This document shows positions 6,646 through 8,221 of a stretch of DNA of 64,000 nucleotides, piece after piece; positions within the stretch are counted from its first letter, which is position 1, and each line of letters starts with the position of its first letter. The notes under the pieces were generated by a model. That model searched no databases. It saw nothing but the letters and a program-made list of their open reading frames with translations, and was not told the origin of the DNA. The DNA comes from a virus. Location of the stretch: the IMG/VR virus record IMGVR_UViG_3300022682_000042, positions 1 to 64,000 of that record; one strand, given 5' to 3'. A program made the position numbers and the translations under genes.

Positions 6646-7965
6646 TTAGAGCGTAGATTCACCGTCAACGTTTGACCCTATGGCCTGCGTTACCGACGGT
6701 TCTTTTAAGTCCGACCCAGGTAGTACCGGACTATAATTTAATTGTTTAAGAGCCTCATTCTTGATATTTACTGCTGCGTTACCGTCTCTATGGTGGTTTA
6801 TACCACATTCAGGACAAGTCCATTCACGAATAGCCAGAGTCAAATTAGCATTGATATAGCCACAATTCGAGCAAGTTTTGCTTGATGGAAACCATCTACT
6901 AATAGGAATGATAATGCCACCATTCCACCCTGTTTTATATTCAAGTTGCCGGCGTTTTTCGTAAAGGGCAGCGTCGCTAATTGCCTGAGCCAGTCGATGA
7001 TTTTTCACCATTCCTCTCAGATTCAAATCTTCAATCCCGATAATTTCATAGCTACTGGCTATATCTGTAGTCAACTTATGAGAAGCGTCTTGCCTGATGT
7101 TAGCTATTCTGGCGTGAAGTTTTGTAATTTGTCTCTCTGTTTGCTTTATTTTGTTAGAGACAATCCAGTTTTTTGCACCTTTTTTGACCGTGCCATTCTC
7201 ATTGAAGTTTTCTGGGTTATTAGCCCGGCGCTGTCTATCAAGCTTTCTTTGCAATCGTCTTAATTTAGCCTGAGCTTCTTTCAGTGCCTTTGGATTTTCA
7301 TAAAACACACCATCACTGGTAACAGCCAGGTATTTAATACCAAGATCAACCCCAACGGCATCATCTAATTGTGGCTGATTGTGAATTGTCTCAACCTGTA
7401 CTGATAACCACCAATCTCCATGTCGATAGCTAATTCTTGCTCCTAATATTTTACCATCAAATCTTAGCTCTTCGGTCATATTGACCCAACCAACTCGGCC
7501 TTTATCGAATTGTACGTTATAGTCATCAAACTTTAGGGCCGTATTTGCTAAATAAAAAGCGGGGATTGACTTTTGTTTAGACTTGAAACGGGGCCAACCA
7601 TTGGGTTTACCGTCTTTGCGGGGTTTGTCGGCTTTAGGTAGTAATCCGTTTTTGCGTTTATGAAAGAAATTTCTAAAAGCAGATTGAAGGTCATCAAAAG
7701 CACCTTGACTTGCCCATGTTGTAACGTCATTAATCCAATTTGGTTTGACTTGATTAAATCGTTTCTTGAGCCATCGCCCGTTGACTGGAATAGTATCACC
7801 AATCCCGGCTTGCTTAACTTGCCAATTGTAATCAGAAAAAAAGTTCCACTCGGCAAGTCCCCAGTTAAAGGTATATCTTGCTATCCCCGCGGCTTGCCAA
7901 AAATATTGTTCTTGGTCAGGAGTTGGATTCAGTTTTATCCTGTGGGCCTTCGTTACTGTTTTCAA
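6646..7965 (-). CDS. tnpB: TnpB/Cas12f-like RNA-guided endonuclease with intact RuvC
   Basis: N-terminal OrfB-type HTH; GVDLG, IEDL, HRDGNAAVNI catalytic motifs; CSNC/CPEC zinc finger; TTG start after AGAGGA. Confidence 0.92.
   Translation of the reverse strand: MKTVTKAHRIKLNPTPDQEQYFWQAAGIARYTFNWGLAEWNFFSDYNWQVKQAGIGDTIPVNGRWLKKRFNQVKPNWINDVTTWASQGAFDDLQSAFRNFFHKRKNGLLPKADKPRKDGKPNGWPRFKSKQKSIPAFYLANTALKFDDYNVQFDKGRVGWVNMTEELRFDGKILGARISYRHGDWWLSVQVETIHNQPQLDDAVGVDLGIKYLAVTSDGVFYENPKALKEAQAKLRRLQRKLDRQRRANNPENFNENGTVKKGAKNWIVSNKIKQTERQITKLHARIANIRQDASHKLTTDIASSYEIIGIEDLNLRGMVKNHRLAQAISDAALYEKRRQLEYKTGWNGGIIIPISRWFPSSKTCSNCGYINANLTLAIREWTCPECGINHHRDGNAAVNIKNEALKQLNYSPVLPGSDLKEPSVTQAIGSNVDGESTL
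6649..6732 (-). ncRNA. Putative tracrRNA/omegaRNA-like scaffold A overlapping the tnpB 3' end
   Basis: Hairpin with loop UACUACCUGGG, hairpin ACCGUC..GACGGU, anti-repeat UCUACGCUC pairing 9/9 with repeat GGGCGUGGA. Confidence 0.7.
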
Positions 7966-8101
7966 TTTCTATCCTCTGCTTATCTAAATACTGACGAACT
8001 GCCCGACGTACGCTCTCGGCAAGTGGTATGCCATCCCTATCTTTTAGCTTTTTCAAGGCACGATATAGATTATTATCAAGCCTCATTTGACGTTGTTTCA
8101 T
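7916..8101 (-). CDS. Ribbon-helix-helix regulator (leaderless start)
   Basis: QMRLDNNLYRALKKL..IPLAESVRRAVRQYL; ATG 6 nt after the -10 box. Confidence 0.75.
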   Translation of the reverse strand: MKQRQMRLDNNLYRALKKLKDRDGIPLAESVRRAVRQYLDKQRIEIENSNEGPQDKTESNS

Positions 8102-8136
8102 ATTTGTATTATAATACAAATGTATACATTAGTCAA
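8087..8136. promoter_or_regulatory. Overlapping divergent promoters sharing a palindromic -10 region
   Basis: Plus TTGACG(8087)-17-TATAAT(8110); minus TTGACT(8136)-17-TATAAT(8113); 20-bp palindrome 8102-8121. Confidence 0.8.
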
Positions 8137-8137
8137 A

Positions 8138-8221
8138 CTCGCTGTACTACCTGGGCAGAGAGGATAAACGGGCCATCGCTAACCCTTAGCATAAGCGGGG
8201 TTGATGGTCAACCACGTGCCT
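8138..8221 (+). ncRNA. Putative tracrRNA-like scaffold B upstream of array B
   Basis: Same loop UACUACCUGGG, hairpin GGCCAUC..GAUGGUC, anti-repeat CCACGUGCCU pairing 10/10 with repeat AGGCGUGUGG. Confidence 0.7.

Follow-up and report, generated by a model that had tools for sequence, protein, structure and literature searches.

We analysed a 64-kb stretch of viral DNA (the window, here meaning the whole stretch at its full length), which is the first 64 kb of the 82.5-kb IMG/VR virus record IMGVR_UViG_3300022682_000042, a record with a CheckV completeness of 100%. In this window a gene for a TnpB nuclease lies between two RNA scaffolds, A and B, each of which leads into a short array of repeats and spacers. 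The locus is probably an intermediate between a transposon and a clustered regularly interspaced short palindromic repeat (CRISPR) system, of the kind named TranC, in which a phage TnpB outside a transposon would act like a CRISPR effector with a split omegaRNA and two guide modules. This reading is based on the observed homology and covariation among scaffolds, on the complementarity of scaffolds to repeats, on the intact motifs of the nuclease and on the finding of no TnpA, Cas1 or Cas2. The locus would then be a natural snapshot of the passage from a one-piece transposon guide RNA to tracrRNA (trans-activating CRISPR RNA) plus a CRISPR array, with an effector that is still an ISDra2-like TnpB.

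The nuclease and the two scaffolds

The elements of the locus are as follows.
6646 to 7965, minus strand: tnpB, encoding an ISDra2-type TnpB of 439 amino acids (aa) with a TTG start; the last 28 codons overlap scaffold A
6732 to 6649, minus strand: scaffold A, within the last 84 nucleotides (nt) of the tnpB open reading frame
6708 to 6732, minus strand: hairpin 1 of A, with a 7-pair stem and an 11-nt loop; CCUG at 6720-6717
6661 to 6700, minus strand: hairpin 2 of A, three-tier and bulged; minimum free energy (MFE) -14.3 kcal/mol, z -2.56
6649 to 6657, minus strand: putative anti-repeat of A, UCUACGCUC, with 9/9 pairs to positions 13-21 of repeat A
6487 to 6626, minus strand: array A, with two 29-nt repeats (6626-6598 and 6564-6536) around a 33-nt spacer (6597-6565)
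6535 to 6487, minus strand: remainder of array A, comprising 21 nt (6535-6515) followed by a variant third repeat (6514-6487)
8138 to 8221, plus strand: scaffold B
8138 to 8162, plus strand: hairpin 1 of B, with a loop identical to that of A; CCUG at 8150-8153
8171 to 8209, plus strand: hairpin 2 of B; MFE -17.0 kcal/mol, z -2.94, equalled in 0/200 shuffles
8212 to 8221, plus strand: putative anti-repeat of B, CCACGUGCCU, with 10/10 pairs to positions 12-21 of repeat B
8238 to 8575, plus strand: array B, with six 29-nt repeats starting at 8238, 8301, 8362, 8424, 8486 and 8547

On the minus strand the order is a ribbon-helix-helix (RHH) gene (8101-7916), tnpB (7965-6646), scaffold A (6732-6649), a 22-nt linker and array A. 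On the plus strand, scaffold B (8138-8221) comes after a promoter-like pair and is separated from array B (8238-8575) by a 16-nt linker.

The TnpB protein contained the Pfam domains HTH_OrfB_IS605, OrfB_IS605 and Cas12f1-like_TNB, and it scored 282 bits against NCBIfam guided_TnpB (cut-off, 100). Its best solved relatives were the ISDra2 TnpB chains 8h1j and 8bf8, which aligned over residues 6-415 (E 6e-55), whereas the LaTranC chains 9jfq and 9jfo aligned to residues 200-408 only (E 7e-31). The PADLOC profiles for Cas12u4 and Cas12f also matched (E 1.4e-76 and below); profiles of this type match TnpBs in general. The protein was aligned with 39 close homologues, 54-75% identical, which came mostly from Logan and JGI assemblies and were compared as proteins. 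D207, E312 and the four zinc-finger cysteines were invariant among these 40 sequences and D394 was nearly invariant, which suggests an active nuclease.

The 82.5-kb record yielded no Y1 or serine TnpA. A second TnpB-like frame at 67454-68029 of the record, beyond the window, was only distantly related (29% identity), and the covariance model of the scaffold described below had no match near it. Because no TnpA was found and the other TnpB-like frame is this distant and has no match to the scaffold model, tnpB is not in an IS200/IS605 transposon context, for which a TnpA or several copies of an element would be expected. A search of the record for two cas families, Cas1 and Cas2, also detected neither.

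An earlier note, made from the sequence alone, had described A and B as two homologous scaffolds with the same ordered parts. This description was upheld, and all of its statements about the sequence were correct. Hairpin 1 was confirmed as seven pairs whose sequences differ between A and B around an identical 12-mer, GTACTACCTGGG, which occurs exactly twice in the window, at 6726-6715 (minus strand) and 8144-8155 (plus strand). Taken alone this repetition is weak, as about 0.32 matches with up to 1 mismatch would be expected and at least two occurred in 5 of 100 shuffles. The DNA of three related loci allowed a wider comparison.
L169: a 2.4-kb contig from a bin of a Chloroflexota metagenome-assembled genome, with a TnpB 47% identical to that of the window
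L275: a 54.7-kb IMG/VR contig, with a TnpB 55% identical
L276: a 4.8-kb IMG/VR contig, with a TnpB 55% identical and a scaffold truncated where the contig ends

A gap-free alignment of hairpin 1 was obtained from six copies (A, B, two from L169 and one each from L275 and L276). Pairing was possible in 90.5% of the cells, compared to 60.3% in shuffled alignments and 26-50% in slid controls. Changes on both sides were present in 5/7 pairs, and the observed covariation score was reached by 0/500 shuffles; between A and B alone, four pairs were exchanged on both sides. For hairpin 2, the MAFFT alignment was structurally inconsistent, and the evidence consists of the folds of individual copies. The MFE structure of the isolated segment had the same three-tier shape in 5/5 complete copies; the outer, inner and apical stems had 5-8, 3-6 and 2-4 pairs, respectively, and a tetraloop capped the apical stem (z-scores of -2.56, -2.94, -2.28, -1.00 and -1.02). 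Compensatory changes between A and B, which the note had also reported for this hairpin, were present in the outer stem (G-C to A-U) and the inner stem (G-C to C-G). Across loci, the both-side exchanges in the outer stem gave G-C in A, A-U in B, G-C in the upstream copy of L169, and U-A and G-C in L275.

The distribution of the scaffold was examined with a covariance model, R1, seeded with A, B and the two L169 copies and run against 344 loci and the window (L355-L366 were left out of this set). Non-seed matches were obtained in L275 (E 6.7e-5) and in L276 with its truncated scaffold (E 0.049), both behind the closest TnpB relatives at 55% identity each; the remaining non-seed matches were weak (L321, E 0.59; L325, E 0.88). 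Because non-seed scaffolds were found only behind the closest relatives of this TnpB, we take the scaffold to be the omegaRNA type of one narrow TnpB clade. The proposal that the scaffolds derive from an omegaRNA is likewise supported, in that A overlaps the 3' end of tnpB as omegaRNAs do and the same RNA follows TnpB in L275, L276 and L169. About 18 C-terminal tails were picked by eye from the 40 aligned proteins, comprising six with VLPG, two with YYLGG or GYLDG, five with DYSDG and five with TTQAD. Because these tail types match the hairpin-1 loop translated in three different reading frames, it would seem to be the RNA, and not the peptide, that is conserved.

Rfam, at E values up to 1, returned no relevant family in 5500-9500, and nhmmer with the scaffold alignment found only L169 and L275. 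A fuzzy search for the 12-mer followed by a stem filter gave 99 matches, which were rejected as noise save those in L169 (including duplicate loci) and L275. Protein scans of viral, metagenome and genome contigs found only relatives of at most 40% identity over the best segment, and a scan with the TnpB alignment additionally found L275 and L276. In 401 Chloroflexota genomes, the best TnpB identity in a phylum-level search was 48%; a class-level search at E 1e-110 returned nothing in 401 genomes and is uninformative, as this cut-off also excluded the copy present in the genome G001.

Predicted pairing between scaffolds and repeats

The array lies directly 3' of the scaffold, on the same strand, in 4/4 arrays (A, B, L169 and L275). 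In the window, array A follows scaffold A and the end of the gene and array B follows scaffold B, so that each array occupies the position and orientation of an omegaRNA guide beside the nuclease. All repeats belong to one family, with 20-24 matches across 29-32 aligned columns between types, and they are palindromic, each being able to form a stem of its own (CCACA/UGUGG in B; CCAC/GUGG in A). The five spacers of array B are 34, 32, 33, 33 and 32 nt long. The geometry resembles that of type I-E, with a 29-nt repeat, a central hairpin, an 8-nt 3' tail and spacers of 32-34 nt.

Two further features of the arrays were noted. In the third repeat of array A the palindrome is retained by paired changes, with CCCUAC/GUAGGG in place of CCAC/GUGG, and this may be a third repeat type and not plain decay. 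The 12-mer AAACCGAATATG is found at 8225-8236, right before the first repeat of array B, and its reverse complement at 6522-6533, right before the third, variant repeat of array A. The two array ends seem to share ancestry; the 12-mer is leader-proximal in B and distal in A.

Pairing of the scaffold tails with the repeats was examined without pre-selecting an anti-repeat. The whole tail from hairpin 2 to the first repeat was searched for the longest run that pairs with the cognate repeat without a gap, with the following results.
Array A: 9 pairs, reached in 77/2000 shuffles, repeat positions 13-21
Array B: 10 pairs, reached in 6/2000 shuffles, repeat positions 12-21
L169, upstream array: 8 pairs, reached in 71/2000 shuffles, repeat positions 15-22
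L275: 7 pairs, reached in 676/2000 shuffles, no anti-repeat

The runs in A, B and L169 begin 3-4 nt past hairpin 2 and fall on the 3' arm of the repeat palindrome, so that pairing occurs at one shared register in 3/4 arrays. The runs of 9/9 pairs in A and 10/10 pairs in B, each with two G-U pairs, are those given in the earlier note. The C-to-T change in repeats 5 and 6 of array B was found, as had been stated, to leave the 10-pair run intact. Compared to A, B contains two additional pairs (G-U and U-G), with two more bases to match on both strands. When the anti-repeat segments alone were compared, the cognate repeat gave the longest run in each case (9 versus at most 7, 10 versus at most 8, and 8 versus at most 6). 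The claim that each anti-repeat is tuned to its own array therefore stands for register and run length, which are best with the cognate repeat, but not for exclusivity, since by energy anti-repeat B binds the L275 repeat (-15.5 kcal/mol) as well as its own (-14.7 kcal/mol) and L275 has no anti-repeat. Overall, the tuning is modest.

A second contact, which had also been proposed, would connect the repeat with the loop of hairpin 1. In A, B and L275, the CCUG of this loop is able to pair with a CAGG located 2-3 nt from the repeat 3' end, and in the upstream module of L169 the loop has GCCG and the repeat CGGC. All cells (16/16) paired, compared to 19-69% in slid controls, and 2/4 pairs were changed on both sides in L169. 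As this covariation represents one lineage event, a 4-bp pseudoknot between the loop and the repeat 3' end is suggestive only.

These two contacts can be compared with those of the ISDra2 omegaRNA. According to the portion of the structural report that is available (PMC10097598), bases -5 to -3 of that RNA pair with -103 to -105, the core of guide, pseudoknot and stem is conserved among Cas12 guides, and the omegaRNA is a natural single guide, in which tracr-like and CRISPR RNA (crRNA)-like halves are joined by a tetraloop. In the window, the segment that begins with hairpin 1 and includes the whole first repeat spans 129 nt in B and 135 nt in A, compared to 116 nt for the ISDra2 scaffold. The suggestion that a scaffold plus its first repeat may act as a natural single guide fits, because the MFE fold of this segment forms the stem between anti-repeat and repeat in cis in both A and B.

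We infer the following arrangement. The scaffold, with hairpin 1, hairpin 2 and the anti-repeat of 9-10 nt, would be the tracrRNA-like half of a split omegaRNA, and the 29-nt repeat would be the crRNA-like half, providing the 3' arm of the last stem by pairing with the anti-repeat. After this arm the CAGG of the repeat would form the pseudoknot with the CCUG of the hairpin-1 loop, and the spacer would follow as the guide. The duplex of anti-repeat and repeat would thus serve as the last stem and rebuild the core of guide, pseudoknot and stem known from the ISDra2 omegaRNA and Cas12f guides. Module A would be transcribed with the RHH-tnpB operon, and the divergent promoter would drive module B. 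In each array, the first repeat may fold back on its own scaffold in cis as a natural single guide, and later repeat-spacer units may pair with the scaffold in trans. Both modules would then be processed and loaded onto one TnpB, with cleavage of DNA, possibly in conflicts with other mobile elements, and new spacers could be taken up by an adaptation module of the host. Of the idea that one nuclease has two guide channels, the part that stands is that each scaffold leads, on the same strand, into an array of its own; use of both by the one nuclease is presumed.

The palindromic repeats also permit another arrangement, in which the repeat is the whole handle and crRNA alone guides the nuclease, with no pairing between scaffold and array. 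The scaffolds would be omegaRNA leftovers, and A may still be a one-piece omegaRNA. Cas12r of Thermus phages, which has 29-bp repeats and 31-33-nt spacers and does not need a tracrRNA, provides a precedent, and the own stem of each repeat, the missing anti-repeat in L275 and the weakness of the duplex energies as evidence for anti-repeat pairing are consistent with it. Against this, the non-coding copies (B, upstream L169 and L275) keep both hairpins by compensatory changes, an 11/12 promoter match is present directly upstream of B, and the pseudoknot partner of the repeat CAGG occurs only in the scaffold and covaries with it. The protein, furthermore, is TnpB-sized and does not have the extra domains of the 564-aa Cas12r. 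We therefore regard guidance by crRNA alone as unlikely.

Several results nevertheless count against a split omegaRNA. The palindromic repeats might be complete guides, as in the tracrRNA-free Cas12r, and the corresponding position in L275 holds no anti-repeat. By RNAduplex energy, whole tails show no preference for the cognate repeat, with energies that were reached by 198/1000 shuffles for A and 52/1000 for B, and the covariation score of the pseudoknot, which depends on one lineage split, was reached by 29/500 shuffles. Fold energies of whole scaffolds are ordinary (z -1.10 for A and -0.84 for B; range, -1.10 to +0.91), and the comparison covers four loci with DNA. The case for scaffold structure is thus comparative and not thermodynamic. 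The spacers also gave no indication of a target: matches to the own 82.5-kb genome were at most 12 nt long, no match to the array B spacers was detected in 50,697 phage records, and 22-mers of spacers B1 and B3 had no exact match in IMG/VR.

Type I-E arrays have a 29-nt repeat with a central hairpin and spacers of about 32 nt. The Thermus type I-E system is described, in the accessible text of bioRxiv 10.64898/2026.04.20.719267, as having a 29-bp repeat and a 32-bp spacer. The arrays of the window could on these grounds be type I-E-style mini-arrays for the Cascade of the host, with TnpB and its RNA merely lying between them. The 29-nt repeats, 32-34-nt spacers, central hairpin and 8-nt 3' tail match this geometry. 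Of the type I-E cas genes that might be linked, Cas1 and Cas2 were looked for in the phage record and were not found, and this too would fit arrays that serve the host. In three separate TnpB loci, however, this scaffold is followed by repeats of one family, in each case on the strand of the scaffold, and covariation links the scaffold loop with the 3' end of the repeat. Furthermore, a degenerate repeat pattern gave scattered matches in 94 of the 401 Chloroflexota genomes (a tally that includes G273 and G345), about equal to the reversed-pattern control, and no listed matches were at array-like spacing; this evidence is weak. A use of the arrays by host Cascade appears very unlikely, although the arrays may nonetheless be fed by host adaptation proteins, which is compatible with a split omegaRNA serving TnpB. 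Copying of the arrays from host arrays was also weighed and was set aside, on the same weak evidence that no array-like clusters occur in the 401 genomes.

Related loci and the origin of module B

The L169 contig contains two scaffolds. An upstream scaffold with an anti-repeat leads into a two-repeat array on the strand of the gene (286-466). A second scaffold at the 3' end of the gene (1650-1745) is followed by a repeat-like 3' piece, with 8/9 matches to the repeat 3' end, and then by unrelated sequence with no array. L169 thus appears to hold an unsplit, omegaRNA-like form beside a split form. In L275, one scaffold is followed by a possible fragment of a repeat 3' half (a 5-nt match only) and then by three repeats. 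The four loci would accordingly present three states: unsplit and split together (L169), a scaffold leading into an array without an anti-repeat (L275), and two split modules (the window). This puts concrete sequences on the contacts needed for a split, namely, the anti-repeat stem and the 4-bp pseudoknot.

Two observations concern arrays at other loci. Spacer 2 of L275 (3856-3887) matches 25/26 positions (E 2e-6) of a segment of its own contig, 2268-2293, some 230 bp upstream of the TnpB gene. The match lies in a terminator-like stretch, with differences near the 5' end, and would fit either a spacer that is nearly self or the capture of a spacer from a related phage. In a further locus, L084, an array of about 32-nt repeats of a different family (3968-4492) is located about 250 nt after a more distant viral TnpB-like gene, whose product has 37% identity over residues 165-401.

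The earlier note had proposed that a scaffold was duplicated and that the copies co-evolved with two repeat types. Duplication in place is doubtful, because B resembles the L275 scaffold (71% identity) more than A (61%); the two L169 scaffolds, at 73%, are mutually nearest. As the sequences are short and A is also under coding constraint, these identities are not pressed. Duplication in place followed by co-evolution does not seem the simplest reading, and capture of B from an L275-like locus appears at least as likely.

The same similarity could mean that B is not used by the resident TnpB at all, being what remains of another TnpB-CRISPR locus that lost its nuclease gene, brought in by recombination with an L275-like phage. 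The closeness of B to L275 and the binding of the L275 repeat by anti-repeat B, at least as strong as that of its own, are consistent with such a relic, as is the usual location of such modules downstream of the gene (PMC10691335, from the text available). Yet the features that one common protein would recognise, namely, the loop of hairpin 1, the strand for the pseudoknot and the architecture of hairpin 2, are the same in A and B. Module B, moreover, has the longer array (6 repeats) and a promoter-like site of its own, and L169 too has an upstream scaffold and array with a single TnpB. An unused relic is in our view rather improbable.

A bolder form of the preferred reading, with a split omegaRNA used by TnpB, is that scaffold-plus-array units are cassettes exchanged between phage TnpB loci. 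Module A would be native and co-transcribed with the gene, and module B would be an L275-like cassette on the opposite strand, with a promoter of its own subject to the same RHH operator; type I-E adaptation of the host would extend the two modules. We offer this as a tentative possibility, on the unlikely side. If it were true, the locus would combine class 1 adaptation with a transposon nuclease as a chimera, and its repeats, palindromic yet tracr-dependent, would stand between two proposed routes from omegaRNA to CRISPR. The doubled divergent layout raises the question of whether guide modules can be swapped between nucleases.

Surroundings of the locus and comparison with known systems

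The locus forms an island of low G+C content, with 0.40 in 7001-8000 compared to about 0.50-0.57 around it, among genes for virion formation. Its surroundings and remaining elements are as follows.
5201 to 6484: prohead protease gene (Peptidase_S78_2), on one side of the island
7916 to 8101, minus strand: RHH gene with an ATG at 8101 (product of 61 aa), whose 3' end overlaps the tnpB start by 50 nt
8087 to 8136, both strands: divergent promoter-like pair, with 11/12 consensus positions each (consensus matches only)
8632 to 8690, plus strand: two terminator-like hairpins downstream of array B
From about 8700, and 10003 to 10929: scaffold-protein and major capsid genes, on the other side of the island

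The match of Phage_cap_E to 10003-10929 (20.9 bits) is slightly below the 22.9-bit cut-off. The RHH protein matched Pfam RHH_1 (E 3.4e-5, on the longer frame 7916-8119) and had no match in NCBIfam or PADLOC. In the promoter-like pair, TTGACG-17-TATAAT (8087-8115, plus strand) is directed at scaffold B and TTGACT-17-TATAAT (8136-8108, minus strand) at RHH-tnpB. The two -10 boxes share one palindrome (8099-8136 region). The in-frame ATG of the RHH gene at 8101 is close to the predicted start of the minus-strand transcript, as the -10 box ends at 8108, and the RHH mRNA may be leaderless.

The terminator-like hairpins at 8632-8690 could mark the end of a transcript of scaffold B and array B. A strong promoter-like sequence, TTGACA-17-TATCAT, is also present in 8592-8690, with the two hairpins at most 40 nt further on and before the scaffold-protein gene, and this element may be a small RNA or an attenuator; a stretch at 5225-5300 resembles it, as judged by eye. 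Beyond the window, 76570-76945 of the record contains about six copies of a 60-bp tandem repeat, which was ruled out as a CRISPR array as there are no unique spacers between the copies.

TranC is among the closest known systems. In the available part of its description (Jin et al., Cell 2025;188:6283, per PMC13565253), TranC systems are transposon-CRISPR intermediates in which the omegaRNA is split into tracrRNA and crRNA. Clades 3, 9, 11 and 20 have repeats of 32-38 bp, and CauTranC9 is a phage example (bioRxiv 10.64898/2026.03.27.714800, as far as its text is available). The locus resembles these, so far as they are described there, in having a TnpB-sized nuclease by a short array, a putatively split omegaRNA, no adaptation genes and phage-borne examples. 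It differs in its 29-nt palindromic repeats, compared to the 32-38 bp given in those texts, in its two scaffold-plus-array modules on opposite strands and in its full-length match to ISDra2 TnpB, whereas LaTranC matches residues 200-408 only.

Cas12r of the Thermus Lalka phages (Trofimova et al., bioRxiv 10.64898/2026.04.20.719267) is described, in the portion available, as a 564-aa protein that uses crRNA alone, with no tracrRNA seen, and a type I-E adaptation module of the host is proposed to extend the phage arrays. The features shared with what is described are a phage-borne TnpB-like gene, 29-bp repeats, type I-E-like geometry, no adaptation genes and a proposed role in conflicts between mobile elements. 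Because the geometry here is type I-E-like and Cas1 and Cas2 were not found, the proposal of extension by a host type I-E module would fit this locus as well. By that description, the locus is unlike Cas12r in its protein of 439 aa, in the conserved, omegaRNA-derived scaffold before each array and in the anti-repeat. No Thermus phage was present among the 72 listed of 408 matching phage records.

The ISDra2 TnpB (PDB 8H1J and 8BF8; Nakagawa et al., Nature 2023, PMC10097598) is similar, on the part of that report available, in that its RNA overlaps the 3' end of the gene and has a core of guide, pseudoknot and stem, in which bases 5' of the guide pair about 100 nt upstream. In contrast to ISDra2, no TnpA or transposon context is present here, the last stem would form between scaffold and repeat and not be closed by a tetraloop, and guides would come from arrays and not from the flank of a transposon end. 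Cas12f and the type V-U systems (Altae-Tran et al., PNAS 2023, PMC10691335) are alike, in the text to hand, in their miniature effector, tracrRNA plus crRNA, and array downstream of the gene. That text describes arrays as almost always downstream of the gene, which makes the upstream, opposite-strand array found here atypical, and also a re-fusion of half-repeat and tracrRNA, which the repeat-like piece of the 3' copy in L169 resembles. A search of a literature library, itself incomplete, for two tracrRNAs or a tracrRNA duplication with Cas12f or two arrays found no doubled module.

A nuclease of 411-439 aa that is perhaps programmable from an array with an 84-nt helper RNA could be of interest for genome editing. 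The kind of system is already known, as TranC (2025), Cas12r (2026) and the type V-U groups are in print. Within the TnpB-CRISPR kind, the locus is a new lineage, which combines an unexpanded ISDra2-like protein with 29-nt palindromic repeats that face an anti-repeat, and it is further distinguished by two modules that flank a single gene on opposite strands, with one module upstream of it, and by an RHH gene at a shared palindromic promoter.

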